A stretch of 64,000 nucleotides of DNA, taken from contig OZ286475.1 of NCBI GenBank assembly GCA_965644265.1, forward strand, positions 11,098,001 to 11,162,000, in the 5' to 3' direction. Positions 22,818-64,000 of this stretch are shown here, one piece after another (positions within the stretch are counted from its first letter, which is position 1; each line of letters starts with the position of its first letter). The position numbers and the translations under genes are program-made. The DNA comes from Glycera tridactyla (Eukaryota). The notes below the pieces were generated by a model that saw nothing but the letters and a program-made list of their open reading frames with translations, made no database searches and had not been told where the DNA came from.

Positions 22818-23365
22818 TAAGCAGATGATCATGTCGATACAACCAATGATGGTCCCAGTCCTAGATGGACTGGTGATGTGACTGGGATTGACCCTGATTG
22901 TGACAAGTGCAAACTTTGAACAACGATGTTCACCCATGTTCCCATATACGATTGTGAACTAGTGACATAACAAGAACTTGGTGCAATTGTCATGATGCTA
23001 CGTTTAGCCCTTCAAGATGATGCAGATGACAGAACTGATACAACCCATGATTGTTCTATTGGGATTGGTGATGTGAATAGGATCGACCTTGATGGCTACA
23101 AGCATGAATGGTGGAGCCAGACTATTTTGGCGATTCGTTAGTTTCCTTTCCACTTTAAACCAACTGTGATGAGCATGAATATATATTGATATTGCAAAAA
23201 TATCGTGTCAATAAAGAAGTGCTTGTTTATGAGGATGTCTTGGTCTGTGATATGATACAGCTGTACTTACTCCATCTATGCCATGTCCACTCGGCCCTTC
23301 ATGTCACTCATAATTCCTGAATAATAGGAATCTGAACTTCGTCAGGGGCCTAACTCATCATCAGA

Positions 23366-23972
23366 GTACGAGTAAGGTCCTCACCGATCAACATGGTAGA
23401 AGTATGGGCCTTACTAATCAACGGGGTACGAGAATGGACTCACTCATCAACGGGGGTTCAATAGGGGCCTTATTTACCAATAGGGTACAAGTAGGGCCCT
23501 ACCAATCAACAGGGTACACGTAGGGGCCTTACCAATCAACAGCATACAAGAATAGGCTTACTGATCAGCAGGGTACAATTGGGGCCTTACTAATCAACAA
23601 CGTACAAGTAGGGTCCTACGTATAAACAGAGTACACGTAGGGGCCTCACTGATAAACAGGGTACAAGTAAAGGTCTCACTAATCAACAGGGTACACGTAG
23701 GGGCTTCACTAATCAACAGGGTACAAGTAAAGGTCTCACTAATCAACAGGGTACACGTAGGGGCTTCATTAATCAACATGGTACAAGTAAAGGTCTAACT
23801 GATCAACAAGGTACACGTAGGGGCTTCACTAATCAACAGGGTACAAGTAAAGGTCTCACTGATCGACAAGGTACACGTATCGGCTTCACTAATCAACAGT
23901 GTGAAAGGTTTCACTAATCAACAGGATACAAGTAGGGGCCTACTCATCAAAATTGGTACAAGTAGGGGCACC
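23366..23972. repeat. 29/30-bp minisatellite with alternating 59-bp dimer, ~20 monomers
   Basis: GGGTACACGTAGGGGCTTCACTAATCAACA alternates with GGGTACAAGTAAAGGTCTCACTAATCAACA in the core, with degenerate flanks. Confidence 0.9.
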
Positions 23973-31311: not shown

Positions 31312-34300
31312 TACAGAATACAGAATACAGAATTCTTTATTGTGTCAGATACATATATACAGAATATTTACTCGAGACCCGAACGGGTCGTATTACGTGC
31401 TAACACAAACGTGATAGCGATAATGCCAGATACTAATAATGCACAGAGTTGTAGTGTTACTTGGGTATCACACCACCAACAGATGGTTCCACTGATACAC
31501 GAACAAGGTATATGATAGAATCTCAGTGCTGCATAGATAAGTAAATCGATTAGAATAACCTGACATGCTGGAGGAGCATGGGCAGAACAAGTATCAGAAT
31601 GACCCTCAGATTGCAATTAAATCATAGAATCAAACCATCAATCAATCAGGCATTGATTCCATATATCCCAGTCTACAACAAATACATGTCAATAACCTAA
31701 ATAGTTACAGGATCAGGGGTAGCAGATATATCGGTCAGGTATATATTCCACAATACATCTTGAACATTTGAACAAACAAAAGGCAATTTAAAGGAGTCGA
31801 TCAATGCTAGATGAGGGCCTGAGCAATCTTTTCAGGATCTCAAGAGATGCGGAATTTCGTACTGCAATACTAGAGGCATTCCACACCTGGGCAACTCTTA
31901 CCCTAAAATTCCGGTCTGAGAAATGTAATTTGCAGCGCGGTACAATAAGATAGTTGGCACTCCCTGCCATAGAGCATGACCTGGTTCGTGCCCCGGCTGT
32001 TTGTGCCTCCATTTTAACAAAAAAGTCACTCACAGGATTACTGGTGTTGCTGTTGTATGAGGCTCGACGGACCTCTATGATTGTATTGTCTTGACGTTCG
32101 TCAACAAGGAATTTTGAATCAAGCATAGTATGGAGGTGAGTTGCCGAATAAGACAAGCCTGCATTCAATATTACCGCTAAGCACTTATTCTGTGAGACCT
32201 GTAGCTTTTCAGAGACACTCACTGTGCAGGCACCATACACGTAGTCCAGGTACAGATACAATGGATGGATAAGACTCGTGTAGAGCTCATGGGCAAGATC
32301 CTGACTGATTGAGGGACGCAGATAATACAATGCTCGTCTCCTAAAGTTCACTTTCTTAACCAGATAATCTATATGTTCACTAAATGTAAGCGACCCATCC
32401 GAAATGATCCCCAGGTATTTATACAGATCAACTTGTTCCATTTGTACTCCATCAAACATAATGTTCATAGGTAGACAGAGTCTAAGGCGCTGACTAGTGC
32501 TGAAGATCATCATTTTCGACTTCATTAAATTCAAGGACAATTTCCTAGTCTCAAACCATCTTGTCACATTGCAGAGATCCTCATTCAGAGCATTTTCAAT
32601 TTGGTGAATGGTCTTCCCACTGATGAGCGAAGCAGTATCATCTGCATAAAGAAATGGTAAACAACAAAGGCTCAACGAGTTAACATATAGAATGAATAAT
32701 AATGGGCCTTAAATAGACCCTTGTGGGACCCTGCAATATTGGCAGCAAACAAGAGACTGATTGGCCAGCCTTGGTTCCTTGCATGCGCCCTCCCAGGTAG
32801 GATGTCATCCACTCGAGGGAGGCATCATTAAAACCAATACATGATAACTCGTCAATGAGAAGCTTATGGTCCACGGTATCGAAGGCCTTCTTCAGGTCCA
32901 GGAAGAGGACCCCACACACTCTCCCCCCTCAGCTGCCTGGTAAATCTGGTCCAGGAGGCTGAGGAGACAAGTGCCAGTGGAGTACCCCTTCCTGAACCCA
33001 AATTGAGAAGGCACTAAGATACCGTGGGTGTTGACGAAATCAAATATTCAGCCATGTACCAAACGTTCTAGCAATTTACCCAAAACTGGTGGGAGACTGA
33101 TGGGTCTGAAATTACCCAGTTCATTTGTAGGTCCTCCTTTGTGTATCAGGGTTACGATGCCATTTTTCCAACCCGATTGGAAGATGGAGGCATTTACAGA
33201 CAAATTAAAAATGTGCCCTAGTACCGGGCTGATCACTGCTGCAGATGCTTTCAGAAAAAAACTCGTTATGTCATCAAGACCACTGGCAGAGGAATTACTC
33301 AAGTCAAGGATGTTTTTCAAAACTTGAATATGCGAGAAATGTCCGATATCAAACTTTTGTCCATTATCAAGATTCAGTCCTAGACTTGAAGTAAGATGGC
33401 AGGCAGTATCTGGTATGTTCTCTGCAAGAGTTTCACCTATCTTAGTTAGGTATTCGTTCATTTTCCCTGAAACTACATTATCACTATGAGTGCCATTGTC
33501 AGATGCGACAGTCGGTTGGACATGGACCTTACGAGCCATGGGCCAGAAGCGACTGATTTCCCGCCACACCTTTTTGGGGTCTTTACCTGCTTTCTTCAAA
33601 CACCCAGAGATATGATCACGTTTGAGTTTCTTTTGTAGTCTGTTCTTCAGACGCAGTGCTTCCTGTTTCAGTAATAGATTATACTGGGACATATTCTTGT
33701 TATAACGCTTTGATCTAATCTCTACATATTCAATGGCAGTCAGGTAGTCGGCGTTGACCCATGGTTGGTGGTTGGCCTCTATGGTTATGACTTTCTTTGG
33801 AGCGTGTTCATTCACAATATCAACAAATAAACATGCGAACTCATGGCTGGCAGCCTCCACATCCTGACTTTCATAAGTAACGTCCCAGTTTATGGAATTC
33901 AAGTCTTCGCAAAACACTGTACGATTAAATCTATTCGTGCTACGGGTTTCAACGGTGCGCTTTTCAGATGGAATTTTGATCCTGTGCCGTGCGGTGAATG
34001 TTAGGTGATGATCACTCAAGCCTGGGTCTAGGCATTCATGGCGAGAGTAATAATCATTCCTAGTGACCGCGATGTGATCTATACATGACGAGGACGTGGG
34101 ACTAAGCCGTGTCGGAGTGGTAATCACTTGTATGCGACCTAGATTATCGCAGAACCTGTAATATTGTTTGGTCAAATGGTTTTTGCATGCCAAAAGATCA
34201 ATATTAGCGTCTTCTGTCAAAATTGAATCTGCAGGTGATTTCAGGGCAGGGTCCTTTATAACTTCTTCTAGTGATTTATGGGCATTAGTCAGCGATCCAT

Positions 34301-34680
34301 CTGGGGGCCTGTATATCTGAAACAGATGCGTAGGGCGAGCTTTATGCAACGTAAGCGTGAAGCACAATACTTCGATGTCTTTCTTGCAAAAACAAAGAGA
34401 TTCATCCAGTGTAATATTATATTTTGTTTTATATTAACCCACAAGCCCACCTCCCCAGATTTACAATCAATGCTGTTTCTATCTTGCCTGATGAAATAAT
34501 AGCCGGGAATCATAATTTCTGTATCATCAATAGATGAGTTTAGAAAAGATTCGCTTAGGCAGAGAATGTCTAGTTGGCTAGTAAGCAGGAGACTAGACAC
34601 ATCATCAACTTTCCTGCTCAGACTGCGGATATTCAGTCCAGCTATTGAGATCCCGGGGAAGATTGCTTAGGGACATAGAA
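31312..34680 (-). mobile_element. CR1/L2-group LINE ORF2 (APE endonuclease plus RT), frameshifted, with 3' tail
   Basis: GLNIRSL...LDILCLSES (APE start ~34660), SSSCIDHI, QFGFRKGYST, FLDLKKAFDTVDH, YADDT and YKYLG, split over at least 4 frames. The 3' end is AATAAA followed by (ATTCTGT)n at ~31312-31341. Confidence 0.92.
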
Positions 34681-36061
34681 CAGTGATCTTTATCATCAAA
34701 AATGCACTTAAAAGGGAAGACATATTTGGGTCTATGTGGGTTAGACATCCTAATGATGGGGAGGTTTTCTTGTACTGCAATTCAGTGTTCATGAGAGAGG
34801 AAGTCATAGGATGTAGAAGGGGCCGTTTTCTTCCGTATTGCCCGGTTATGAGTCGTCTCAATGCCAATAGTCCATAGTGACGTGATCATGGTTTATGACC
34901 AAGAAAGACTGCAGTATAGACGCTAGATGGTGGTTATGAGTCTACTGATGAGTACTGAGTAGGACGCTTGGTGATTTGGGTGAGACAGGATTCTACTGCT
35001 GGGTGGCATATCATGATTGACTCAATGTGATGCTGGGTGTATCTTGTCTAGGCCATGGATGATGAGGCTTGCAGACCAGGGAGCAGTTGAGAAAAAGGCG
35101 GTCAAATTGACGCTAGATGGCATCTCCTGAACGAAATCATAAGATGCTAGTTGTAGCTTCTATAGGCCACGGATGAGCAGGGCGGTGGACCAGGGAGTGT
35201 GCAGGGTGTTCCATCAAGAAAAGATTTGAAGTTGTATCAGACTTGTTTTCTCAAGGCAAGTGTCGCATAGCACCTTTTGTTTACTAGTAATATGTTCAGG
35301 AATGCTTGTATTAGGTCATGTCATGATCAAGGTGGAAAAATGAAGGGAGAAGTTATCGAGTTATTTCTAGCGGGGTCCCCTGAGATGCACAGTGTAGGAG
35401 TTGTTATCATTAGAGACAGTCGATGATAATATCATACATTAAGCATATCAACAAATGTGACCGAGGGGATGAACGAATAAATCGTTGTGGAATTCTCATT
35501 CTACCTAACGAGGGGTTGCACAGGAGTGAGCGGGAATGCTTCAGTTTTTGAAGGGTCAGGAGTATAAGTTTTGAGTTTCAAGTTTTAAGCTCAATATGAT
35601 AACCATAGAATGAATGAAAGCTGAGTAGTACAATGCACGATGGAATCCCTATTCTATACACGAGGAATCGCGCGAGTTCATGGGCGCCGCCATCTTAAAT
35701 TTTCACGCGAGTACCGCATTGCCCGCTCACTTCTGGTTCAGCTCAATCCCATTGAAAATACATTGATTTCATGACTCTTTCTGGCCCTCCCACAGCTTTG
35801 ATCCTCGGCGTCCACACCTTCTGCGTTTACCTGTGAATTCACAGAACCTTGTTGTCTTCGCTTTCTCAGCTTTCCTGTGAACTTCGACAGTGTTGCCAAT
35901 GATGAGCAATGTCTCTCACGCCTTCACAGCTCACCACAACTCAGAGAGGGTCCGTCGATCTTTGAGTCATGGTTTCCACACGTCAACCCCCGAACTCTCA
36001 GTCTTGACTTTCGAATCCTACCCATGAGCTCAATCAAATACTACTACTACTACTACTGCAT

Positions 36062-36201
36062 CAAAAAGTGGTCTTTACAGGGAGGTGGGCTGCGTAGAGA
36101 GGTCATTCACTATTGAAAATACTACGACTATTGAAACTCAGGGTGGCCTTTATGGTGAGGTGGTCTTTATAGAGAGGGGATCATTGGAGGAGGTTCGAAT
36201 G
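36062..36201. mobile_element. Partial Tc1/mariner-type MITE (right end)
   Basis: Repeated GGTGGTC/CTTTA(C/T)AG motifs ending GAGGTTCGAATG|TA, resembling the elements at 51282 and 59919. Confidence 0.45.
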
Positions 36202-40076: not shown

Positions 40077-43000
40077 TCAATGGTACTGTTGATTCCAGGA
40101 ATTTCCTAAATACATAGGCTGGTTCCCCATCTGGTTCGCTCCATGATTCACGCTGAAGGGAGGTGAGGTGTTGAGAGACCAATTTGGCTGGGCATGTGAA
40201 GTGTATGCATTCATTTGAATAATAGGGAGTCTATTTGGATGAAAGACGGGAGCATACACATTTAGATTACCCGAGGGAGCATAATTCCGTCGATAATGGG
40301 GCATCCAGGGAAATTCCAGTTTTGTCGTAGGTGGTTATATTGGTTGTTGTAATTCCCACTATAGGTAGACTGGTTTTGAGAGGAAGGTGGGCTGATCTTT
40401 TGTGTCATCAAGGGAGGTATCTGAGGGCCAAGAGGATTCTCTCGATTCACCTCGGGAGGAGGAGCTTGTTGATCAGATGGAGCTGTGGAAGTGGGTGGCT
40501 GGTGGTCATCAGTTGGGTTACTCTGGGAGTGGTCTGGCTCCCTGGGAGGCTCATGTACACGGCCTTGGTTCATCTGAGGGGTATCTCGTGGGGGGTGATC
40601 CTGAAGAGATTGGAGAGATTCGGGAGTGACCAGCTCAGGAGGGCTACCAGAAGACTTTGTTGCCCAAATCAATCCATCGTGAGACCAGACTTTACTAAAA
40701 GCTTTCCTTTTTCTGGCCTCAGGTGCTTCATGATAAAGTGAATTGTTTTTTCCAATCAAATATTCTTTTACAAAGATGTGACTGCCACGTAGAGCAGACT
40801 TTCTCTTCAGGATCTGTCTCTTTGGATCGACATCCTTAAATTTAATAATGATGGGGCGTTTGTTTCTACCCATTCGGCCAACAAAGGAGCTTTTAATAAT
40901 GTCAGATTCATTAATGTCAAGACCTAGGCGCCAGTCCAATTCATATAACACATTGGATGTGATTGAAAAATTTGGGTTCACGTCTATGCCTTCCACTAAT
41001 AAACAGCTCAGCCTATCTGAAAGCTCAAGATTATCCACCTTGTGGTTGAGTTTTTCAATATCATTCATTGATTTAGACTGGTTTGCATCAACAATTGCAT
41101 GACAAATATCTTCAACTTCCTTTCTACTTAGACTCGCCGTCTGCTGTTTGGATGCGTTCGTGGAGGAGGTGGCAGGACTCTATGCAGTGCCCAAGTTCAA
41201 CCTATCTGAAAGTTCTGAACACTCAACTTTGTGATTAAGTTTTTCAAAGTCGTTGACAGATTTCGCTCGATTTGCATTGACAATGGTATGACAGATATCT
41301 TCCACATCTTTCTTGGTCAAACTTGACACTTGTGACATTGGTGCTGTCACAGGGGTGGTGGAAGGGCAAGAGGCAGTGTCAGCAGGAGGGGCCGATAAAG
41401 ACTCCGCGATGGGGGTGACATGTTTGGTAGCACCAAGGGAGGGAGGGACATTCCTCTCTCGAATGGCGGGTGAAAAAGTTTTCATCTCTATTCCGAGCTG
41501 AATGAGTTTCAATTCCATTTTGGCAACGTCTTTGGATACATCAGTCAATAAGTTTTTTCTCAGACGTTGTTCCACAAGATCAGTTTTTTGTCTAATCGTA
41601 ACCAACACCGCTTCATCGAAGTCCTCTTTGATGTCTTTATCAAGATCATTGATGGCTTTAGTCTGGCTGCAGAGGACTTCTCGTTTGAAATTATTCAAGG
41701 TGAAGCAAAGGTGATCATTAAATTGTGTCAATTAGTCATTCTTCATAACATTGAGAGTGGTTTCACATATTAATGGATCAGTTTGTGTGGATTCATCACT
41801 TGGTGAGGAGTGGTTATCAGAATCACCAGTTACACCATCAGCAGGAGGTGGGACAGGGGTGAAAGGCAACACACCTGGTGAATTGAGTACATCCAAAGAG
41901 TCATTGAGTTTCTCAGGGGGTTGTTGGCATGGGGGGATTGGTTGAGACAAGAGAGAATGCACAGGACTGGAGTGGCTTGCTGGTCCAGAAGTGTGTTCAG
42001 TACCAGACAGGTCTGAAAATGCAGGGTCCATGGACATAGCCTCGTGGTCAATACTTCCATTCACTTCATCAGGGGAATCCCCATGCGAGTTGCTTGCCGG
42101 GTTTGTGACCTTGTTCGGGTCATCTCGAGAGTCACATAAATCAGCTGGTTCTGCCAAAGTCACTGATGAACCGCTAATTTCAAGCACGGTAGTTAGGGTA
42201 TGCACATCATTGGACTCTGGTGATTTGCAGTCATTTTCCCCTCTTTTAGGGCTCAGATCACTAATACTAGAGGCTGGGGATGTATCGTCGATAATCCGTT
42301 TATGTTCACCTTTGGCCGGGGAGAAAGTTTCGGCATTAGACACGAGGGGAGCATGTGTGGAGGAGCAAATGGGGGTTGCGATGATTTCCATACTACTGTC
42401 TTGATCAGGGCAGGTATTGTGATGTTCCATATGTGAACCAGCCGTGGCAGTAGGTGTCACTGCGACACCGGGGATAAGAGAGGTATCATCAGTTGACACA
42501 CTAGTATCGGCAGGGGTAGTGGCAGGGTGTGCAGAATCAGCGGCGGATGCGTGTGTGTCTGTGTCTTGCGGTATAACTGCCACTTTGATTATCGGGCCTG
42601 AGTTTGTATTGATAATCAAATTATTGCTGGTACCAGACTCAGATGTTTGGGTTTGGTTAGGGGCCCTGGCGGCCTAAAAAAGGAGGGAGTCAAATTATCA
42701 CCGGAGGTCACATCCAGTTCTGATTTCTGAAGAAAGTTTATGTTTGGCTGGACATTCAGATTGCTCTGATCACTGACAGATGGTGAGGGGTTGGCACTTT
42801 TGCCAAAGTTCAAGTGGTCAATTGACACACTCAGAGATTTGCCTTTTTCAAGCGCTTCAGCATTAAGATCATCTAACTGAGGAGCCATAGTGTCATTGAA
42901 TGTAAAATTTGGCAAAGATGCATCAGATAATGATGGTGAGGGGGGCAGAGGCAAGGCATGGTTTGCAGGCAGCTCAGTTATACCCGACAGGGGTTGCACA

Positions 43001-43386: not shown

Positions 43387-44399
43387 AGTCCAGTAAACAT
43401 TTGCCTTGGGGGAGGACTTTAAACACCAGTAATAAAGCGACTATGGCACACTTCGACAACTATGTCTTCACCCAACGGTGGCCATAATCCATCTATCATT
43501 TACATTCAGCATGCTGCTTCTGTACAGTATAGCCTTACAATTGAAACCAAGAAATGATATAACATGCTCGTGAATAGACAATTTTTGAAACCATACATCA
43601 TCAGAGCATCCATATTTAAATTAGCATCTGATCAGAAAACAAACAGTATCATATAATATTTCAAGGAGTGAACTATATACATCTGGGATATTGATGCAAA
43701 TTATCGGATTAAAAATGAATACATAAATACCTGAATAAATCAGATAATTTATTGAAGGTGGTCATCATTGTCTATCATTGCTGGTGGTTACAATCTTTTG
43801 GCATTGAATAATATTTCGAAACAGTGCCTCAAAATAGATGATGAGAGTCTGTGCCTCACTCCAATATTCATGCCCCCCCCCCCTCTCCGATTTTGAAGTT
43901 CCCATTGCTGTAGTGGAGTTTTGTGGCTACTATAGACAAGTTGTATTCTTTATGTTCAGCAACATTTGACCCAGTATTTGCCTCTCCTGGATGGAACACT
44001 AAGCAGAGCCTTGAGATGGTGTGTGGACCACAACACCTCCTGAATTATGTGAAAGCAGGGTGTCTCTCCCAGCTGTTTCACATTCAGATTGTCATGAGGC
44101 CCTCTAGAGAAATACCTGCATCTACACCCACAGTCAATGCTAAGACACCAGAAGAATCTTGACATAGCTGAACTACAGCAAGACTATATGGCTGTGAGGT
44201 GAAAATGTATTTCCAAATGAGGTGTGAATTTCAAGTGATGTCATCAAGCCAAAGGCCGAGTGACATCTGGAAAAAGTCACACAGAGTTTAGTATTATATT
44301 TTCAACTCACGGTCATATAATCTTGCTTTTATCACAGGGATCAGTGGAGAAGTTGTCAAAAAGTAGTTCTGACCCAGCTGTGAAGTGAAATTCGCAATA

Positions 44400-44985
44400 C
44401 TCAACACCTGATACTTCACTGAAAATGGCACATCCATGTGATCAATGTATCATACACATGATCTATGTACCTGTACAATGGGCCAATAAAACTGTCCTGA
44501 AGGAACATTGCCATACCCGCGCTCATTGACGACAGTCAAAGCTAGCATAGAGCCCACCATCAAAAATTAACAAAATGATCAGTATGTAACTTGAAAGTTA
44601 GTGACGGATCGAGAATGACCCCAAGGTACTTGAACTCACTGACCTGGTGTACATGCTGGCCACGGCATGTGATATTCGATTCGCTACAAGATTTGAGATT
44701 TCAGTACCGAATGATCACGCTGGGTTCGTTTAGATGTGGTATAACCTCATGTCAAGTCTAGCTGCATGCTTATGTTATCAATATATAATATAGAAAAGGA
44801 GGGCCAGGATAGAACCCAAGGCGACACGATTTTCAACACTATGTGAGCCAACCTAACTTCACAAACCTTCACACATTGACCCTGGTCATACTGATTCCGA
44901 TCCAGTTACCTCTCGAATCTAATGTGTCCAAGTTGCTCTAGCGAAAGGGTGTTGCCAATGGTTTCAAAGGACTTTTTCGGGTCCA
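44400..44985 (-). mobile_element. Decayed CR1-group RT fragment (inverted copy of 52655-53270)
   Basis: Reverse-complement match to 52655-53270, including the KYLGV.LDPSLTF segment. Confidence 0.7.
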
Positions 44986-45737
44986 TGACGAAGACTTAAA
45001 AATGATAATGAGGATAGAAATTACAATAGTTATGATGATAATAATAGTAGTGATAACATTATAATGATAGTGATAATGATCATGATAGTGATAAATGGAA
45101 GTATTGGTTTTGATATTGATAATCATGATGACAATGATAATGATGATTTGAGGGGTGAAACAAATTCACAGCGGAGGTCAGTGAAATTCCCATTCGATTT
45201 GGTGTTCATCATGAATGAATATCCTACTCGCTATCTTTGTAATTGTACAAAATGAGGAAATCACATGACCTTTCAAGCCTGAAGCTTGAGAAACTCCATC
45301 CTGCATTCTCTGAGACAGAAGTTACATTTGTGTCATCATTTGCCTCTGACAATGTGGGCTAGGGCAGTGGGTATACAGGTGTATGTGTGCAGCATTCAGA
45401 TGAATGAGAGGATAATGGGTTCAACCAAGCTCACTGATCTATTCCTTTCTTTCGAATCTTCGAGGACTTTTGTGAGTACTTCTTCAGGTACAACAGACAA
45501 GACTATGCAGAAAAGATCATGGCATTTATTGCACCTGTCTATGATTCAAACATAACTAATAATAGAACTTGGAATCTGATGAAGGCTGGTGTCTCCGCAC
45601 TGACAAGCAATTCAGTCCCATTCGCAAGCACTGAGATCGATCATGATCCAGGATTCTTTGCTGAAGTCGTTAGAATTGATGCTAGTTCAGAGAAAACCCG
45701 AAAACACATTTCACACTTTGCGGATATTGCCACAAAT

Positions 45738-49960: not shown

Positions 49961-51281
49961 AAGTTTATGACCTTGCAATCACTAAAATGAGCATTTCGGG
50001 CTCATAAGCCGAGGATAAGTTCAAATCTAGAATTATTGAAGAGGGTGATGATGTACTGAAGAGAATGCTACTACAATCTTTAAGAGAAGTGTGAGGGATA
50101 GATGATTCCCCGCACCCTGGAAAAAAGGTCATCCTGACTCCACCATTTAAGCGTTGCTCCCAAGATGACCTACATAATCATACCTTTGGGATGCTCTCAG
50201 ATCGCATTGTACTTGTGCAGTGCATAAAACAACCCCGCTCCTAAAGTCAGGTGAACACCTGGGAAAGCTGCAGATCTCAGGGGAGGGGACTGAGTGTAAG
50301 ATAGATGGACTGCAATGAGAGATGATGTAAATTCTCATCAGTGCTCATGACTGATACTGTATCAGGTTAGAACATCAATGTTCTGTGTCATAATGTGCAA
50401 AGTCCTGAATCATGTATGTCCTGCAACCCATGTAGAAGCATCCATTTGTCAGATTTTCCCTGTGTGCTGACACCAGTTGTGACATATGTAGAGAATCAGA
50501 TCTGTGTCACCATATCTATCTTGTGGATCCCATGCTGATATCCATGATAGGGTTCATACAGATATAGTTGTTGAATATCACCTGACCAGAATCATATTTT
50601 CTGCATCTGACTGCATAACATCTACAGAGAGAATCACTCTATCATACTTCGCCACTGGCATGAGTTCAGACATAAATGACATCTCATCAATGACTGAATG
50701 AGTGTTCTCATAACATGATAGTTGGCCATCTCTAATCTGTTGGTTGGCATCAGTAAGCAATGCTTCGTGAATGGGTATGAACTCATTCTTACCCTTAAAT
50801 GTGATAAGATGGCTATCAGGATTCATCAGAGTGGGATTGATTGATGTGAATGGATGATATACTCAATGTCAATCTAACAATTGAATTTGGCAATCATGTA
50901 TATTTGTTTCATTGCTTTTCAGTTTGATAGTTGTACAAGCATCAACCAACTTCAGGAACTTGATCTTCTCCATTCCAGCCCTTGGGTTTTTTGTTCAACA
51001 TGTTCGGTCTTTAACAAAAGACTGTGAGGCTTGCTGCCCACAATTTCACATGTTCGTAATATCCTACTAAATGTTCTCAGGCAACACCACTTCAGTCATA
51101 AGTATATTTAACTTTGGTGATGTATCAGTGAATGCATCACCATTCCAAAATGGCTGTCAGCTATGTCATACTTTTTGCACATTGAGATACAAGCTGATGA
51201 TAGATGATGATGGTGAGTGTCACATTCATTTGATTAGGCCTAGTATTTCCCAAGATAGACTTACTAAATCTGGAGGACATA

Positions 51282-51459
51282 CAGTCAAACCTGTCCTAAG
51301 CAGCCACCCTTTGGGAAGGCGACAAGTGGCTGCCTAGGGCAGGTGGCTGCTTAGAGCAGGTCAATCATAGTGGAAAAAACCTCCGTTGGGAAATTCAAAA
51401 GTGGCTGCTTAAGGCAGATGGCTGCTTAGTACAGTGGCTGCCTAGGACAGGTTAGACTG
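51282..51459. mobile_element. Tc1/mariner-type MITE, 178 bp
   Basis: TA|CAGTCAAACCTGTCCTAAGCAGCCAC ... GTGGCTGCCTAGGACAGGTTAGACTG|TA: TIRs plus TA target duplication. Confidence 0.85.
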
Positions 51460-52654
51460 TATACAATACTTGAGAAGTGTAGACTGCTTATTTGTGATTC
51501 CCCTTGGACTGGCATTACCCTTGAGGACTTTAGTAGGGACTTTCTTACCCTGAAAGCAACCCTGGTGCTCGTGAAGAGGATTATTGGTCAGCACAAAAAA
51601 ACCTGACTGCAGGTGATTCCAGGTTTCAACATTGATCACTTCCAAATCATGGACATGTGCAATGAATTAAATTATGTTTTGTGCAAAATCCAGTCTGTTA
51701 TAACTCAAAATGTGCACACACATGATTTCCAATAATGCCAAAAAAAAGGATGAATCAGGATGCTTTGTGGGATGCATTGAGTCTGGCAGTGTCATGACTG
51801 ACAAATATGTGACCATTCTTTCATGTAGGAAATTTCAGGTGACTTCTATCAAACTCTGCTGGCTGATTTTCTATGGCTGATTGTTCAATCACGATCATTA
51901 GATTTTTATGTACATCTGAGATCACTCTTCCACTATTGGCGCCTAGCTTATAACCTCTCAATCCTCACTCATGAACCAAAGACAGTTGAATTGTCATCCA
52001 TGAAATTTTCAACCATGATTTAAAGAGTACATTGAGTGTCATCTCATGAGCATCAGTGGCATGGCTGTGAAGGTTTGACATGATGAATTGTATATATCCA
52101 TGTGAGCTTGGTCAGACTTATGGCTTCATCATTTGTTCATATGCTGTGCACACTCTCTCACTTATGCCTACCGGCTACTCCCCATCCACAAATTCAGGTG
52201 CAGATAATGACACAAATGTGCCTTCAAACTGTCTATGAGAATGCAGAACATATTTTCTCCAATATGACATGTGAATAAAGATGCATGTGGGGAATTAGAT
52301 AGGTATTTTATATGTTTTCTGCCCTTCGGGATGGCTGAAAAAAAATTAGGACATGTTGCAAAGGATTTCCAATGAATCTAACCAGAGATATGTATTCCTT
52401 ACCCCCAGAAATGTGGAATTAGACACTAAAAACGCTTTGATGTCATGATTGGTTCTCAAGATATGACCAAAACCAGACGGGAATAGCAGCCATCTTGAAA
52501 ACCAAGATGGCCGCCATCGGAGTTATTTGAAAAAATGGAACCAATCCAGGTTTTGCTATTTGGAGTACTAGGATGCCAAAAAACACTGTTTGGAAGAATG
52601 TAGCCAACATTTTCACAAATGGAATTTTACAGACATAGTGGCATGGACTACTCA

Positions 52655-53270
52655 ACATGGACCTGAAAAAGTCCTTCGAAACCATGAGCAACTCTTTTTT
52701 TGCTGGAGCTACTTGGACATATTAGATTCGAATAGGAACTGGATCGGGACATATCTGTATGACCAGGGTCAATATATGAAGGTTATTGAAGCTATTTCTG
52801 ACTCACTTAGTGTTGAAAATCGTGTCGCCTAAGGTTCCATCCAGGCCCCTGTATTTTCATATGAAATGTCGAGAACATAAGCATGCAGCTAGACTACTGT
52901 ATATCATTCAGTAGGCTGATGACGCAGTTCTTTCAGCCAATGGACATGTGGTTACACCGGATCTGAACAAACCCAGCGTGATCATTCGGTACTAAAAATC
53001 TCCTCAAAACTTGTAACAAATTGAATGTCACATACAGTGGCCAGCCTATACCAGGTCAGTGAGTTCAAGTACCTGGGGGTCAATCTCGATCCCTCACTAA
53101 CTTTCAAGTCACATACTGATTACTTGATCAACGAAGTTGATTTTTGATGGTGGGCTCTATACTATCTTCGACCATCGTCGATAAGCGCGGGTATGGCAAT
53201 GTTCCTTTGTGACAGCTTTATTGGTCCATTGTACAGGTACATAGATCATGTGTATGATGCATGGATGTGC
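52655..53270 (+). mobile_element. Decayed 5'-truncated CR1-group RT fragment
   Basis: DLKKSFET, V.*GS, QVSEFKYLGVNLDPSLTFKSHTDYL and ALYYLRPS; similar to the RT at 32.2-32.9 kb. Confidence 0.75.
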
Positions 53271-54639
53271 CTTTTTCAGTGAAGTATCAGGTGTTGAGTA
53301 TTGCGAATGTTACTTCACAGCTGGGTCAGAACTACTTTCTGACAACTTCTCCACTGATTCATGTGATAAAAGCAAGACTATCTAACTGTGAGTTAAAAAT
53401 ACAATACCAAACTCTGTGTGACTTTCTCCAGATGTCACTCGGCCTTCGGCTTCTTGACATCACTTAGAATTCACACCTCTTTGGTAATGCATTTTTACCT
53501 CACAGCCATATAGTCTTGCCATAGTTCAGCTACGTCAAGAGAAAAACTTCAGAATTCTTCAGGTGTCTTAGCATTGACCGTGAGTGTGGATGCAGGTATT
53601 TTCCTAGAGGGCCTCATGACAATCTGAATGTGAAACAGCTGGGAGAGACACCCTGCTATCACACAATGCAGGAGATGTTGTGGTCCACACACGATCTCAA
53701 GGCTCTGCTTAGTGATCTATCCAGGAGAGGCAATACTGGATCAAATGTTGCTGAACATGAAGAATACAACTTGTCTATAGTAGCCACAAAACTCCACATC
53801 AGTAATGGGAACTTCAGAATTGGGGTGGGGGGATGAATATTCGAGTGAGGCAATGGCTCTGGTGCGATTGTGGAGCAGTGGTCTCCGGATGCTCCCCCAT
53901 GAAATGATGATACCCAGCAAACACACCTCTGGTTTGCCATATACCATATGAATAGTGTCATTAATCCACCCCATCTATTCGGAAGCGCTGTTTCAAAATG
54001 CCATTCAATGCAAATGATGTGCATCCACTAGCAATGATAGACAATAATGACCACCTTCAATCAATTATCTGATTTATTCAGGTATTTATGTATTCATTCA
54101 TTCATCTAATGATTTGTATCGATATTCTAGATGTATATAATTCGCTCCTTTAAATATTATATAAAACTGTTTGTTTTCTGATCATACGCTAATTTAACTA
54201 TGGATGCTCTGATGATGTATGGTTTCAAATATTGTGTTTACACAAGCATGTGACATGATGTTTCATTATTACGTATACATCAGCATAACCAGTAGTTCAA
54301 AATCGAAAATGGAAACAAATAGATTGTTGAAACGGTTCTGTTCTTCATGGTTTTTTGTGGCAATCAACGGCAATTCTAGTCACATCACCAGTCTAGCTAT
54401 GCTATTCATTGGTTTTGTCATTTTGCTAATCTGCATATATTGGGGGGCTATTCATCGCAATTGTTGCACTTGGTTCTTGTTATATCACTAGATCAATATT
54501 GTATATGGAAAAAAGGATATTGCAGATATATTGCGATTCATGATTTGCGGTCTCAATAATCAGGGTCGATCCTTGTCAATTCACCAGTTCACCCAAGAAG
54601 GGGACCATCATTGGTCGTAGCATTGTCCTCATTTCCTCA

Positions 54640-55855: not shown

Positions 55856-56290
55856 CTACAACAAACAGCACCAATCTACATCGTGAGGTATTTGCTCAAT
55901 TTGTAAGCTCCAACCTCATCCTGCAAGATGAGCATCTTCCAGCATTCATTCATAGAAAATATTATCAAGAGGCTATCATGGTTGATCCTGGTGTAGGTAA
56001 GGAACATCTTTGCTATGTCTATAAGCACATCAAACCTAATTTTTGATAATCTACATGCTTTCGAGAAGGATATGCTCTTATTCCATTAAATTCATATGCT
56101 CAAATAGTTAAAATTATTAGTTGATCGTCATTGACAGTACACCAAGCCCATAAACTTTGCCCATCTCATGCTGTTTCATTAAGCAAATATGAAACTGAAA
56201 AAAGCCATACTAGGATCTATCACAATGAGAAATGTGTCCTGTGGTAAAGAGAGATTGATGAATGTACAATCAGACCCAGAATTGACTGAC

Positions 56291-56605
56291 CTTCAACGGC
56301 ACTGCTTGGGAAGTCATTCTGTGCTGGGTTGAAGGGCATCCATTGGCACTCTCCATGATGAGTGGTGAGTATTTCAGCCGGGCCACCATAGCTCATCTCT
56401 CGTGTTTCATCATAAGCGAACCAGTATCTACTCCAGCAGGGGCATGCTTTGGGGATAAACAGACCTCTGTTGTAAGGATGGCGTACGATGTAGGTTGTGA
56501 TGGAGCTGCATAAATTATCGCTTTGAACTTCCATTGAGCCATCCGGGAGAGCATTAGCATCAAGTGGAGCTGCTGGCACCGGGGACCAACCAAGCTGTAC
56601 TGCAT
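56291..56605 (-). CDS. Paralogue E exon 2, DM9 repeat 1
   Basis: AVQLGWSPVPAAPLDANALPDGS...YIVRHPYNRGLFIPKA...AEILTTHHGECQWMPFNPAQNDFPSSAVE G|GTCAGT, 315 nt. Confidence 0.75.
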
Positions 56606-59047
56606 CTGCAAGGGAGTAGATGGAGGGGGTGCAACACGTCTGTGGTAAAATATGATACTGACCTGAAGTAGCATGATGATTGGCCAAATAGATATCTGTG
56701 CGGAATCCAAATTATGAACCACCTCGAAATTTGATTGGTATTTGATGCACTAACATTCAACATACATATGTCAAAGATGGTTATCCAGGCGTGTTCATGA
56801 GGAGCGTGGATTGTACATTAGCCACTCAGACAGTTGATACCCGGGCTAGTGAATGTACTTATGATCGCCTAGTAGCACCTAGTAGACACATCTCACGACA
56901 CATAAGAGTGAGGGATTGCTCACAGGATCGACTCTCCATAGGCTGGCGGTGGTTCACCTAGGCTCACTTTTGTTCACCCAGGCTCACCAACATGAATGAC
57001 CAACGATGATATCCAGGCTAAATGAAGTCAATTTATTCCTTCCCTCTTCGACAGGTACACGAATGCAGTGGGAAGGACTGAGAAGCTGAAGTTCATCCTA
57101 TCTCGGCAGCGACGGTCCCCGTAGGCTCCCAGAAGATCTTCTCTGCTTCTCATTCCTTCCCTCACAGTTTTATACTATTCAGATAGAATGGAATGCTCCA
57201 CCTCGAGTGCCTGCCCAGCCTTCTAAGAAGCTGCAAAGGCACATAGTGTGTCCCGATTTCCCTTAGTAGCCACATTTTCCCTAGCAACCAGGGCCTTATA
57301 AGTCTTGCCCTGTTGTCAATTGTGGAACCAGGTCACTACCGTGCTCTGCACGAGCATACATAATGGCAGCCAAGATGGCTCTGCCAACATCAGGGGCAGA
57401 AAGAGCCTATGCACGCTGGCCTGGATTCATGGTTATTTTTAGGAACTAAAAATACCTGCCAGCCTATTAGCATCTGCCCGGCTTCAGCAGCAGCCTGCAT
57501 AGTGGAAAAATACCAACGCTTGCAGCAGCCTTTCTGACCTGCTTCAAACCTGTCTCCATTGTCCGGCTGAAAATGCTACCACTTCTGACAATGACTCGAA
57601 TAAAATCGCTGAGACATGTGAGCTTCATTATGATGACTTTGGCCGCACATTTCAACGAAATTTGCCACTTTTGAGTTGTAGGCAGGAATGTGGTAACTTT
57701 CCATATAGTATTTCGGTTTTGTCAACGTCGTTGAAAGAACAATTACCAGCATGCGAGGCGAGATTCGACGTCCGAATCACAACAGGAGCTGGCAAATAAT
57801 TTTTTTACTAGAGCATATGGGTTCAAATTCAGGTTCACACTGGTTTATCAGACCAGTTTAAGTTCCTGTTTATCCGAGTTCAAGTTTGTGTCCATACTGG
57901 TCCACGATTCTCGGTAATGTTCATCAGATATCATATCATATTTTACACAAATTTTATATTCAAAACATTTCGAGGATTTCATCGATGAAAACGTTATCTA
58001 CCTCCACCTTGAACGTAACTGATTTCTTCATGAAAGACGCAATAAATAGGAGTTGGGAGAAAGCAAACAGTTCTATCTTTGGAGTTGTGTTCCCAACCCT
58101 TGCCGCTGGAGATGTGAATCAATGCAGCCAGTTACTTGCTTTTTGGAAGCACCCAGTATGACCCTTTCTATCTCAGATTACGTTTTCGTGATCAGGTCAA
58201 ATTTCCCCCGATCATCAGGATCATGCTTGTCATCATATTCGTATTTGACTTCAACATCATCATCATGATCATCATCATAAACATATACATCATAAACATA
58301 TGCAAGTGGTAAACACATACACCCACAAACGAACTTACAATTCTCGCTGTGGGCCACACTTTTTACTGTTATAGTCTTTCAAGCTCTATCGTGGCGGGTA
58401 CGTTTTTCGCCCTGGCATCGCGAATTCGCATCCGATTTGAATGAAACTTGCAGACAGAGACGGTGTACATGTCCGGCGACTAAAAATGTGATCTCAGCGA
58501 AGTTTCCTTGTATATTTCACCTCAGAATGCAATATATGATGATTTCAAGCTGGTTTCGCGGCAGGTGCGGCGGTCGTACGTACGTTGTAAACATGGGGAA
58601 GACCGGGCGATAATGCCTGAACATTCGCCGAATAAGTACAATGAAATGATGGCGTACTCCTCTTCAAAAGCATACAGGGTCCCTGAAACCCAATTCGATA
58701 ATCATTGGAACACTTCTACAAACTGAAATCAGACGAGTGATGAGGACAGGAGTGCTTGGATCATACCCGCCAAATTTGGATCTGACAGACTTCAGACAAA
58801 ATGTTGCCATTAAAAAGCCTCTCTTCGGGTATGCTATACAATTTGGATGATCCCTCTACCCAGAGTGCATGATTACTCAGAACCCGGATAGCATGTTGGT
58901 CTAATCATGACTGAAGGATGCCTACCTCGAACCAGAAAAGTGCTCCAGTGGGAGAGATAATGGCAACGACGGTGTTGAGTTTAACGACAGCAGTGACGGT
59001 GACAATGATGATGATGATGATGACGGCGATAAAAGTGACTATGACAA

Positions 59048-59190
59048 NNNNNNNNNNNNNNNNNNNNNNNNNNNNNNNNNNNNNNNNNNNNNNNNNNNNN
59101 NNNNNNNNNNNNNNNNNNNNNNNNNNNNNNNNNNNNNNNNNNNNNNNNNNNNNNNNNNNNNNNNNNNNNNNNNNNNNNNNNNNNNNNNNN
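59048..59190. other. Assembly gap or masked sequence
   Basis: N run next to (GAT/GAC)n low-complexity sequence. Confidence 0.95.
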
Positions 59191-59932
59191 NACCACGGCT
59201 GTGCAAGTGCAAGTGGATTAACATGGTGATTCAACTAGGCCTTAGGCCTCGTGAAATTTCAACTCGACCCTTCCCACTTTGTTAGATATGGCATAAAACA
59301 CGGCTATGGTTTCATCCTATTTGGTGAGCTTATATGAAATGCTGAGATACGTCCTGGCGTTGATTCATCACTGTAAAAACTGTTAGTAAGCTCTTCTCAA
59401 TATATTTGAGTCATCTGAACTTGACAAGTTATGATAACTTGCACTTTCATAGTACAGATGACAAATAAGGTTTTGCAAGTTAAGTCAACTGATGTAAGAT
59501 GAGTTTATTCATGTCCTGCCGCCGAATTGAGGCCAGGTGTTTATGTTTCACTCCTGCATCTACCATGGATACATGGTGTGTGTGTATGAGAGGGAGTTGG
59601 GTACATCCTGTCTCCTTCCCCTGCTGGTCAGGCATCTAATCTGCCACTTATAATCTGCGCTACTCTGCCAAACTGCTGTAACAGACATTCATCAAGTGAC
59701 TTGTCTCAAAATCCTATTTAATCCAGCCAAGTACGTAATTATCAATCTATGCATTCTCAATTTGATGCATCAATATTGAGAGAGCTGTCTTTTCCACAAT
59801 GATTGTTTGGTTTTTGTGATATCATGTGTACCAGTTGATTTATATTCGAATTACAGCCATGACCTAGATTCAGATTTGGGCAAGTGAGTTGCATCCCATG
59901 CATTGGTTGACTCTAGTACAGTCACACCTGTC

Positions 59933-60953
59933 AGTAGTATGAATGTGTCCTCGTGAGTCGTTTTGGTGCAATATTTGCATGCAATTCTCCATAGAGAATA
60001 CCCGTGAGTCGTTTTGGTGCAGCAGCGTCAACGATGTATATGTGAGGAGTAGAGAGAGAGGAGGTGTTTTGATGCTACGCAGCAGGTGTCACTACTCCAA
60101 AAATTCCTACCAGATAATACCTATGCAGTTTTGGAGACAGATACAGATTCATTATATATAGCATTGTCCGAAAACACTCTTGAAGCATGTGTCCCTTCTT
60201 CAAAGCGAGCAGAGTTTTACCATCAACTCAGACAATGGATGCCTGTAAAAGCGTGTGATAAGCATTATGATGCCTATGTCAAGCACATGAATATAAATTC
60301 AAATCCCTCTACTTGGGAAGCAAGGAAATGTTGCTTGGAACATTATAAGTATGAATGTCGCACACCTGGAAAATGGAAGCTTGAAGCTGAAGGTCATGAA
60401 ATGATTTGTCTTAATTCAAAGACATATATTCTGCATGACGATACTTCCAATATCAACAAGATCTCAACTAAAGGACTAAGCAAAAGACTCAATAGCTTCA
60501 AGCTATCCCATTTCAAAGATGTTTTATCATCAAGAAGAAGTCATGAAGGAATAAATAGAGGGATAAAAGTATCCAAAAATAAACAGATTTTCACCTATGA
60601 ACAGAAGCGAACAGCCTTGTCATATCTATATATCAAAAGAAAAGTGCTTTCTGATGGTATATCCACAGCACCTCTAAAAATATAAACTATGTAATGAAAA
60701 AAAAAGAAAAGAAAATATGTAATGAAAAAAAAGAAAAGAAAATATCATCAATAATAATTTTTTGAGCCGTGAATTTTATTCATGGTTTTGAGGAGTGGAT
60801 AGGTGGAGAGAGAATTGATGAATGGATGCACCAAAACGACTCATATATACATCGTTGATGCTGCTGCACCAAAACGACTCACGGGTATTCTCTATGGAGA
60901 ATTGCATGCAAATATTGCACCAAAACGATTCACGAGGACACATTCATACTACT
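59933..60953. mobile_element. Non-autonomous mini-Polinton/Maverick, 1,021 bp
   Basis: 5'-AGTAGT...ACTACT-3' termini, ~114-bp TIRs (59933-60046 and 60840-60953, about 3 mismatches), perfect 6-bp TSD CCTGTC (59927-59932 and 60954-60959), internal pPolB fragment. Confidence 0.93.
60086..60685 (+). pseudogene. C-terminal ~200 aa of a Polinton-type protein-primed DNA polymerase B
   Basis: ETDTDSLYIA (motif C), RTPGKWKLE, LNSKTY, STKG and the terminal YIKRKVLSDGISTAPL*. The frame is open but lacks the N-terminal exonuclease/TPR region and an ATG at its 5' end. Confidence 0.88.
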
Positions 60954-61685
60954 CCTGTCTACAAAAAACCATCTGTGGTTACATTGAGAAATGGTCTATG
61001 AAGGCAGGCAGTCTTTGTTCAGAAGTTGCTCAATGTGAACATGATATCATGATTATAGTTCTTGGTGACCCCCCCCCCCTATAGGCAGGTGGTCTTTGTG
61101 TAGAAGTGGTCTCTCAAACAGGTCTATAACTCAATTTCATGTGAAGGTGATCAGGGTTTATGATACCATGCCTCGCATTCCAGGTTTTCAGGCCTCATAC
61201 ATTATGCAAGTGTTTATATTCCACAGAGATGTTGCTCCTAAAAAAGTCAAACTTGTATACAAAGACCATACTTGATCACATCAAAACTTGGTCTCAGAAA
61301 GGTCATTGAGGATAGGCTGTCTACTGTATTAATACCTATCTTCATTATTGGAAATGGGCATATATTTGTTTTGTTGGTATACGCTGGTTGAGCCTGAAAA
61401 GCAGTTTATTGACCCTTATCATTTCAGGTAACTATTCTTCAATTCTCAGCTCAAATAAATCAGTTTTTGTGTATTAACCCTCATCATTTCAGGTGATCAT
61501 TCCAAGCAAAGTTGGAGCCAACTATTTGGTAAAATCTGTACGGATAAGTTACCGTCACTCAATACTTTCGAGTTTGTTTGACTTGATATTCAGTGATATT
61601 GAGGGAAGTCTACTGTTTGACAAGTTGAGTCAACTCAGTATATAGAGTTGGATTGAAAGAACACATCAAGTTATGCCGAAGAGTC

Positions 61686-64000
61686 AAAGGCTTCAAAGGC
61701 TTCAAAGGCTTCGAGGCTTCAGAGGCTTCAAAAACTTTATTCTGATTGATGAATAATACACTCATCTCCCTCAAACAGATTGCACATCACAATACATAAA
61801 ATATACGTGACAGTTATACATCTTTTCACAGAATGAAGTTACAACTCAGTACGTAGTAACAGGAAAATATGTAAGGCAGAAAAACAAAGCGCAGAATGTG
61901 TGGTTGATTCACTATGGCAGATTTACATTTCACCAGGTACTTAGCAAGATTTCACCGGACATCACCAAAAATAAAATAACAAGTCGTGACATCATATCAA
62001 TATAAAACCGCGACAAATAGCCGCCTGACCGAAGGACTGCAGTAGACCATAATACTATGGTCGCCAACTATCGCATATCAAACCTAATGCCATTTACCCT
62101 GCTCTAAAAGATTGTAACACTTCCTGCTTCTTCGGTGTGAGCAGGGAGACCATTGAAGGCACGAGCTCCCCTGACTGATAGTCTGCGATCTGCCAATATG
62201 CAGGTTGACATAGGAATCTGAAAGAAGTTTCCAACTTGTCGGCGAGTGAAAGGGCCTTTTTGCTGAACTTGTCGGGTATACAGACCATTCAGGGGTGGGG
62301 GTACTAGATCGTGGATTCCTTGATAGACCACAGTGCAGAGGTGCTTGTGCCTGCGTGGACGGAGATAGTCCAACTTCAATTCCTCATGCATTTCCACTAC
62401 ACTGCGAAATCGATCAGCTTGCAGGATGATCATGCAAGCAACATTCTGAAGCCTTTGTAGGCGGAGCGAGTCATTGACAGACAATGTATCGTAAGAACAG
62501 TCACAGTAATCAATCACCGGGAGAACCAGAGAACTGTATAGCATCATTGCAATATCTTGGGAAATACAGTTCCCGGCCCTTCCGATGATTGACAATTTGT
62601 TTGTGCAATTACCAATTAAATAATTCACATGATGTGTAAGAGTCAGATGGCTGTCTAGCCAGACTCCTAGATATTTTAATCGGTCAATTCGCTCTAGTAC
62701 AGACCCATTCATTACCATGTCTATGTTATTGAAGTTGCACATTTGAGTTCGGCTACCCAGCAGCATCCACTTTGTTTTCTTGGTATTAATTGTGAGCTTA
62801 TTTGAGTAGAACCATGATTCGAATTCGAGAATTCCTAGCTGCAATTTCAGCTCGAAGTCATCGCTGTCGGCACTCGAATATGGACCATGGTAGTGAAGTC
62901 TATCAAGCACATCACCGTGGAGTGGTTTTTCCTGAAGCCTGACTGGGCCTCCGAGAGAAGGTTATGTCCTTCTAGATAGGCACAGCATTGCTGGTGTACC
63001 AGCCTTTCCAGTAGCTTCCTAAAGGTGGGTAATACCGAGATTGGTCTGTAATTTTGTTTGTCATTCTGACTACCAGACTTGTGTAGGGGCTTGACTATAG
63101 CACGTTTCCATACATCAGGGAACTTGCTTGTTTGTATGCTCATGTTTATTAGCTGGACTACGACAGTACCTAGGGCCTCCCCTCCAGCTTCAACAATCTG
63201 GGACCCAACATCATCCTCTGCACTTGCGTTTGAGCTGTTAATTTTCTTTACTGCGTGCATATAGTCAGTGATTTTTACTTCTTTAAGCTCAAAAACGGGC
63301 GGCAGGCAGACGCCTTCGAGGAGCTCTGTTCGAGAGATATCTTGATATTTTTCGGCAAGTTTTTCTCCTTTTTCAGTGAAATGTTGGTTTAGGTATTCAG
63401 CCACTTTCTCGGGCTCGGTCTCATTGTCTATTCTCACAACGCCAGATGACGGGTTGGCTTTTTTGCCCGGCCAAAAACTTCTTTGGGTTTTTGGCATGTG
63501 TTTTCAATTTTTCGCAGATATAGGTTCCCTTTAGAGTTTGTTTCAGAGAGTTGCACTGTTCAGCAAAGAGTTTAGAGTATCGTTGATGTAGTTCATTATT
63601 TGATCTTCGATGTCTCCCTGGCCAGTATTCTCTGCTGTCTACCAATGCCAGGAATTCACCGTTCACCCAGGGTGCATTCACAATTCGGCGTTTCGATGTC
63701 CGAACTGGTAGGTGTTTGTTCATTACTGCTATAAGTTTATTATGGAAATCCGATGCGATTATATCCACATTTCGAGATTCAGTATCGAGAACTATGCTTC
63801 CCATGTCATCTGCAAATTCTGGGCAATATATGTTGCGATAGGAACGATATTCTCGTCTTTCTTTTGCTTTGCTGATTTTTGCTCTCTGCCTGAAGGCAAA
63901 TACTGAACAATGATCACTCAGACCCGGATTTAGGATACCTGAGTGAGCGAATTTTGTTCCATCAGTGATTCTCGTTGGAGATTCGATGAGTTGATCCAGT
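61686..64000 (-). mobile_element. CR1/L2-group LINE (RT plus linker), frameshifted, runs off the window
   Basis: NYRPISVLPTF.KLLERLVH, QSGFRKNHST, INTKKTKWML, KYLGVWLDSHLT and IDYCD in ORFs 62104-63804. The 3' end is AATAAA plus (TTTGAAGCC)n at 61686-61742. Confidence 0.92.

Follow-up and report, generated by a model that had tools for sequence, protein, structure and literature searches.

Within the 64-kb window (the whole stretch of DNA that was analysed) we found a short element bounded by Polinton-type ends, which we refer to as the mini-Polinton. The element is 1,021 bp long (59933-60953), starts with AGTAGT and ends with ACTACT, i.e. (AGT)2//(ACT)2, and is flanked on the + strand by perfect 6-bp copies of CCTGTC at 59927-59932 (left) and 60954-60959 (right). 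The probability of identical flanking 6-mers by chance was 2.9e-4 when calculated from base frequencies and 3.9e-4 when determined empirically (1,038 of 2,650,350 position pairs). The terminal inverted repeats (TIRs) are 114 nt each, with the left arm on the + strand at 59933-60046, starting AGTAGT, and the right arm on the - strand at 60840-60953, ending ACTACT; three mismatches separate them (97% identity, BLASTN E 7.5e-51). Each arm contains two copies of a 19-nt sub-repeat, located at 59952-59970 and 60003-60021 on the left and at 60865-60883 and 60916-60934 on the right. A third right-end copy (60827-60845, - strand) straddles the TIR border at 60840 and has no complete left partner, as the identity between the arms ends at 60046, 5 nt into this sub-repeat; the mini-Polinton thus carries two copies on the left and three on the right. 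The original prediction of AGTAGT termini, a CCTGTC duplication (59927-60959), near-identical 114-bp TIRs and three right-side sub-repeats, the innermost reaching past the TIR, was in these respects borne out.

Assuming that the arms were identical at insertion, the three differences (3/114) correspond to a divergence of 1.3% per arm (95% CI 0.3-3.8%). All three (59957/60929, 60027/60859 and 60042/60844) are one and the same transition: the + strand of the right arm has T where the complement of the left arm has C, each time after A. One of the three lies at a CpG. The pattern was spotted post hoc with n=3 and could hint at single-strand cytosine deamination, a hint weakened by the fact that 15 of the 31 C's in a TIR arm are preceded by A.

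The DNA on both sides of the mini-Polinton provided a control for the target site duplication (TSD). The element inserted into an older TA-flanked MITE, which we take to be of the Tc1/pogo type, 16 bp from the MITE end. The left end of the interrupted MITE (59917-59932, + strand, including the left TSD copy) is a 16-nt terminal motif with one mismatch to its relatives at 51280-51295, 51446-51461(-) and 7437-7452(-). Allowing at most one mismatch, this motif gave four matches in the window compared to none in 100 shuffles. Because the motif had been built from two of its own four matches, the right flank was tested independently. The remainder of the MITE (60960-61135, + strand, right end approximate) aligned to MITE relatives: no shuffle out of 300 scored as high against 51296-51461, none against 36060-36200, and four did so against 61258-61330, to which it aligned in register from 60960. 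Over all four MITE-relative targets, the score of the right-flank DNA was equalled by 0, 0, 4 and 37 of 300 shuffles, whereas in the control, the mini-Polinton's own left end against the same targets, the numbers were 50, 66, 253 and 6. In the first in-register scan of MITE relatives, one of the top four outside matches (52649) looks unrelated. An intact MITE copy of 182 bp, with arms identical at 26 of 28 positions, is located at 51280-51461. Uninterrupted MITE ends in the window carry a single CCTGTC each, hence CCTGTC is a true TSD, and since the MITE is split while its relatives have one copy, the duplication was made at insertion. We regard it as established that Polinton ends were inserted into an older MITE in the integrase manner, with a 6-bp TSD, and that the interior of the Polinton was lost with both ends intact. 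The short TA-flanked MITE-like family itself is old, is represented at 51280-51461, 7437-7452(-), 36060-36200, 59917-61135 and 61243-61330, and contains internal sub-repeats of ~17 bp.

Between the TIRs of the mini-Polinton, a frame of 210 codons is open at 60053-60685. [quoted passage not shown] The translation of 60092-60685 (+ strand) is 65% identical to residues 1120-1315 of the homologue P0001, a protein of 1,315 aa. In tblastn comparisons with the 12 best homologues, the similarity begins at 60092 or slightly after and continues to the stop. Homologues of the fragment at E 0.001 or better comprised 1,315 cluster representatives, and among 409 candidates there were 42 longer homologues, nine of them with PF03175. 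The match ended at most 5 residues from the natural C-terminus in 135 of the 176 homologues covering the fragment, and in 55 of the 66 long ones. The retained part amounts to 14-15% of pPolB. Using patterns that we assume to represent motifs A and B in pPolB homologues, both motifs were located upstream of the retained part in 6/6 closest full-length homologues. A near-identical protein was not present among 15 matches of similar length, the best of which reached 57%.

The fragment alone matched no Pfam family, and a sequence search of the PDB gave no match; PF03175 was found in 3 of 65 aligned fragments. A structural model calculated from these 65 sequences had a pLDDT of 94.7, whereas an earlier model from nine sequences (pLDDT 50) was excluded from the fold search. 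Foldseek returned no PDB match for the model at E 0.001. The best solved structure was phi29 DNA polymerase 447-575, top of 48,161 chains, with Z 5.6 (modest by the tool's own caution) and an rmsd of 3.1 over 111 aligned residues; the runner-up had Z 2.8. Residues 447-575 of phi29 polymerase presumably comprise motif C and the thumb. There were nine viral matches at E 0.001 or better, of which seven are named DNA polymerases and two are labelled structural-protein fragments. We concluded from homology and fold that the frame from 60092 is the C-terminus of a protein-primed PolB, in which the DTDS motif and the thumb region are kept as predicted. It had also been proposed that failure of the ORF to hit pPolB profiles would speak against this identity. 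Pfam is silent for the fragment alone while homology and fold identify pPolB, and such a test by Pfam alone would therefore mislead.

Other carriers of pPolB (bidnavirus-like, adenovirus and phage) came up in the fold search at 13-26% identity; they were rejected as the source because of the ends of the mini-Polinton, its TSD and the matches of 51-65% found elsewhere. Since the homologues come without genomic context, the Polinton origin rests on their size, on the presence of PF03175 in 9/42 and on the mini-Polinton ends. Several homologues contain additional domains. NADAR was found in 6 of the 65 short polymerase C-terminal homologues (A3 rows 40, 45, 46, 53, 56, 63) and in the homologue P0029 too, and this co-occurrence suggests that polymerase and NADAR are fused in some of the related elements. 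Among the 66 long homologues (>=1,100 aa, among P0001-P0193), an N-terminal C2H2 zinc-finger pattern was seen in 26 and a motif similar to a VSR-type nuclease insert in 31, according to patterns which we take to be diagnostic of these features.

The left TIR is separated from the polymerase sequence by a purine-rich linker of 45 bp (60047-60091), which holds the deletion junction and gave no polymerase HSP in tblastn with 12 homologues. No significant match was detected between the linker and ten nearby targets (TIRs, interior, flanks, right subterminal region), the best local matches being equalled by 16-368 of 500 shuffles. The two best of these were a 9/10 echo of the sub-repeat, which 16 and 38 of the 500 shuffles equalled. 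The absence of a significant match over the ten targets led us to reject templated filler as well as copying from the right subterminal region; the linker is either left subterminal DNA of the parent or filler. Depending on this, the DNA that was kept comprises 114-159 bp on the left and ~860 bp on the right. A distance of 155 bp separates the polymerase stop from the right TIR, and the 3' end of the gene faces this TIR. Directly past the stop codon there is an A-rich tandem duplication of 27-28 bp (60684-60745, + strand), near which a second junction is possible. Modules of vertebrate Mavericks mostly point inward (PMC8097293). In a nematode Maverick, on the other hand, the polymerase 3' end is located at the TIR (10.1101/2022.07.12.499685), and remnants in C. 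elegans stem from that end of a Polinton at which the polymerase lies (10.1101/2024.01.15.575659). As a polymerase 3' end beside the TIR is thus known in nematode Mavericks, one deletion suffices.

In the 64-kb window, which is little sequence, BLASTN detected no further copy of the element or its TIR, and tblastn with 42 homologues detected no pPolB elsewhere in it. In GTDB genomes, an exact scan for the 24-nt terminus was empty and a protein scan gave 35 pattern matches, none of them confirmed; for an element from an animal, these outcomes carry little information. The window contains five N runs with 1,094 N in total; the nearest (59048-59191) is ~740 bp from the element, and none is inside it.

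Further features were noted in the remainder of the window. An exon-like segment of ~110 codons occurs in at least five paralogous copies (3209-3347(-), 6725-7051, 19918-20238, 29029-29358 and 56283-56612(-)), 48-71% identical to the copy at 56283-56612(-) and forming part of longer duplications that occur in either orientation; it represents a tandem host gene family without a Pfam or protein-database match. Two satellites were found, at 15455-16773 (58-bp unit, 22.8 copies) and at 23344-23969 (30-bp unit, 21 copies). Broken LINE-type endonuclease/reverse-transcriptase sequences lie at 31788-34666(-) and 62104-63503(-), with weak RVT_1 and Exo_endo_phos_2 matches; reverse transcriptase or endonuclease was found in 3 of the 10 window ORFs tested. 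The ORFs at 40262-41731(-) looked like LINE ORF1 by eye and matched no Pfam family. Furthermore, an inverted repeat pair of ~1.5 kb (43554-44987 and 52656-54259) is 81-85% identical, and CpG in the window is depleted (o/e 0.5). Taken together, the LINE-type fragments, the MITEs and the CpG depletion make an animal the most likely host.

How the mini-Polinton arose was judged by weighing four origins, and the weights given below are judgements, not computed values. The best explanation, which we consider just about probable, is a deletion on a free Polinton before integration, followed by helper-driven insertion in trans. A free, replicating Polinton would have lost its interior by a template jump in protein-primed replication or by faulty repair. 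The short molecule would keep the cis elements for replication and integration, namely the terminal AGT repeats and the TIR sub-repeats, and the polymerase and integrase of a full-length helper would copy and insert it in trans, either once or so as to give a small family. The polymerase tail would then be a passenger, undecayed so far, and the mini-Polinton would at present be inert unless a helper acts. The intact ends, the 6-bp TSD and the breakpoints near both ends argue for this origin, and breakpoints in such positions would fit selection for short replicating molecules. Movement in trans has a precedent in Pieris, where polB-less Polintons kept amplifying (10.1101/2025.02.07.637071), and another in the zebrafish family Polinton-1N1_DR (PMC9341505). 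The youth of the element, the agreement of its ends with those of vertebrate Mavericks and the polymerase 3' end known beside a nematode Maverick TIR speak in favour as well. Against a helper-driven origin stand the one copy in 64 kb and the left end without a third sub-repeat, which may be a lost cis site. Furthermore, Mavericks are mostly low-copy, with a median of 8 per vertebrate genome, are size-constrained near 17 kb and are argued to spread mainly via virions (PMC8097293), and the anole is described, in the available text of PMC3014272, as being without non-autonomous copies. Regarding the two forms that helper-driven insertion might take, a multi-copy family is put forward tentatively; a scan would be expected to meet members of such a family more often than singletons. 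A one-off defective genome inserted by a helper seems unlikely to us.

The strongest rival is a deletion in situ, in which a full-length Polinton was inserted and ~94% of its interior was lost afterwards, leaving a one-off fossil. We consider this a serious possibility, though on the whole improbable. Either end-joining or an abortive repair of the gap left by excision would account for the loss, the parent would have passed on its TSD and ends, and filler or left-subterminal DNA would make up the 45-bp linker. In cut-and-paste transposons, abortive gap repair leaves short unequal end tracts and a linker, and the short unequal tracts and linker of the mini-Polinton may, by analogy, resemble such a product. 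The single copy in the 64-kb window is in accordance with a deletion in situ, as are reports of decayed copies: among the Maverick loci of vertebrates, 96% are defective (PMC8097293), a midge commonly has its Mavericks in fragments (PMC8504770), and 10 C. elegans loci hold remnants made up of pPolB and a TIR but no integrase (10.1101/2024.01.15.575659). This origin, however, requires one ~16-kb loss soon after insertion, given arms diverged by 1.3% each, the linker is no detectable copy of nearby DNA, and Polinton excision is only a model in the literature covered, as far as the available texts go. It had been proposed earlier that a single copy with a unique junction would refute trans-mobilisation. 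That demand goes too far; deletion in situ would not follow from finding one copy, because a helper can integrate a one-off defective genome too.

An assembly artefact, in which a scaffolder or gap-filler joined Polinton ends across a collapsed interior, is very improbable. Assemblers have difficulty with long TIR-bounded repeats and the scaffold is gapped, with an N run ~740 bp away, but the element contains no N, its junction consists of 45 unique bases and not of a shared overlap, and the arms differ at three sites, so they were assembled separately.

A working protein is probably not produced from the mini-Polinton. In the polymerase frame, the earliest in-frame ATG (60239, 148 aa) is downstream of the DTDS at 60140, nine ATGs precede it within the element, and no other ORF that overlaps the element exceeds 93 aa from stop to stop. 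The dominant-negative DTDS peptide of the original prediction is not supported, given the lack of an in-frame ATG before DTDS, the nine upstream ATGs and the missing motifs A and B. In simulations at 1.3% divergence, a neutral frame remained stop-free in 71% of runs; with an assumed indel rate of one tenth of the substitution rate, it was free of both stops and frameshifts with P 0.43 at 1.3% and 0.10 at 3.5%. Since neutral decay at 1.3% per arm often leaves the frame open, the open frame does not argue for a function. None of 29 conserved columns is violated in the fragment, and the same was observed in 73 of 176 homologues. In a quick tree of 67 of the 177 rows (those of >=1,100 aa and the mini-Polinton, with no named references), the terminal branch of the fragment was 0.24, compared to 0.17-0.33 in the seven closest long homologues. 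From arm divergence, conserved columns and branch length, the mini-Polinton is young. Its single strand folds as a panhandle, the long stem of which is the 114-bp TIR pair, and gave no match in Rfam; as the stem pairs the TIRs only, hairpin siRNAs would target the ends and not the polymerase piece. That the host retained the element as an anti-Polinton device, acting through small RNAs that silence or through a palm/thumb peptide with a dominant-negative effect, is therefore highly improbable: the open frame with 29/29 columns intact, the confident fold (pLDDT 94.7) and the TIRs able to pair as a stem would favour it, but at this age the frame would be expected to be open even if unselected, intact columns are common among homologues, the only usable start lies behind nine others and past DTDS, motifs A and B belong to the upstream part that was lost, and the stem covers the TIRs only and is without an Rfam match.

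The replication and integration of Polintons are known almost only from sequence. In the multi-copy form of the helper-driven origin, the mini-Polinton would belong to a 1-kb MITE-like family, as a defective-interfering mini-genome travelling virion-free in germ cells, which we rate as possible but unlikely. If true, the minimal cis sequence of a Polinton would be ~114 bp per end, with two sub-repeats being enough, transposition would take place inside the cell in a group for which spread chiefly by particles has been argued, and a class missed by surveys would come to light. A two-ended 1-kb copy is too small for the ~17-kb size norm tied to packaging (PMC8097293). Found repeatedly with different TSDs, such copies would constitute direct genomic evidence of helper-driven movement inside the cell, would map the minimal ends in a natural setting and would mark the host as one in which Polintons were active recently. 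A lone copy that lost its interior on site would be an ordinary fossil, useful only as a probe for the parent family.

By structure, the mini-Polinton is a non-autonomous Polinton deletion derivative and not an autonomous Polinton. It has the TIRs, (AGT)2//(ACT)2 ends and 6-bp TSD of an autonomous element, but is only 1,021 bp in size and lacks the exonuclease and motifs A and B of full-length pPolB; integrase, ATPase, protease and capsid genes are absent too, since 1,021 bp leaves no room for them. Both termini and the TSD surround Polinton-derived internal DNA, as expected for a non-autonomous Polinton. Like a MITE, the element is short and bounded by TIRs and a TSD, 1,021 bp being at the long end of the MITE size norm. 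As regards coding capacity, which MITEs lack, it contains 197 open polymerase codons but no start before the catalytic motif. The end motifs of Polintons/Mavericks are (AGT)2//(ACT)2 or (AG)3//(CT)3 (PMC8097293). The PolB of Beta-adintoviruses/Polinton group 1 is described as divergent from PF03175 (PMC8502044), and the closest homologues have PF03175 weak or absent: it was found in 0/8 of P0001-P0008 and weakly in P0011 (E 7.6e-8). The N-terminus, where that class has an OTU-like domain, is not part of the mini-Polinton. The absence from P0001-P0008 may indicate class Beta/group 1, as a lead only, because the tree contains no named references.

Published surveys have applied filters requiring polymerase matches of at least 650 aa and an integrase (PMC10748475), polymerase and integrase within 20 kb (10.1101/2024.01.15.575659) or a long spacer of 9 kb or more between the TIRs (10.1101/2023.10.06.561300), and such filters leave out copies like the mini-Polinton. 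The available texts of PMC6431247, PMC11296320, PMC10294476 and PMC9341512 contain nothing on minis. Non-autonomous Polintons are already known in print. In the accessible portion of the literature, to which the founding papers and Repbase/Dfam did not belong, a complete ~1-kb Polinton is nowhere described, an absence of little weight.

Polinton-1N1_DR, in which we take N1 to denote non-autonomous, is a TIR-bounded Polinton derivative without a working polymerase. The family was named so in zebrafish (PMC9341505), and Tlr1 is sometimes viewed as a non-autonomous Polinton (PMC5499653). With vertebrate Polintons/Mavericks the mini-Polinton shares the commonest end motif, (AGT)2//(ACT)2, a TIR length within 46-1,447 bp, a perfect 6-bp TSD and pPolB-derived sequence; in contrast, it is 1.0 kb instead of 12.7-24.6 kb, its polymerase faces outward where theirs mostly face inward, and it has no integrase, ATPase, protease or capsid ORFs and just 14-15% of pPolB (PMC8097293). 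The polB-less elements of Pieris are likewise TIR-bounded Polinton derivatives without a working polymerase, but they come from insertions of at least 12 kb and contain further Polinton genes as well as TE cargo (10.1101/2025.02.07.637071). The mini-Polinton differs from them in being 1 kb and gene-less except for the polymerase tail; the Pieris elements have been shown to amplify. The remnants in C. elegans resemble it in having a polymerase-end piece beside a TIR, but are described as partial, not as two-ended minis with a TSD, and have TIRs of 744 bp (10.1101/2024.01.15.575659). By analogy, the mini-Polinton may work like a non-autonomous DNA transposon derivative. MITEs and Ds-type deletion derivatives are short, TIR- and TSD-bounded and dependent on a helper; here, unlike in those systems, the parent is a self-synthesising virus-like element and an open coding remnant has been kept.
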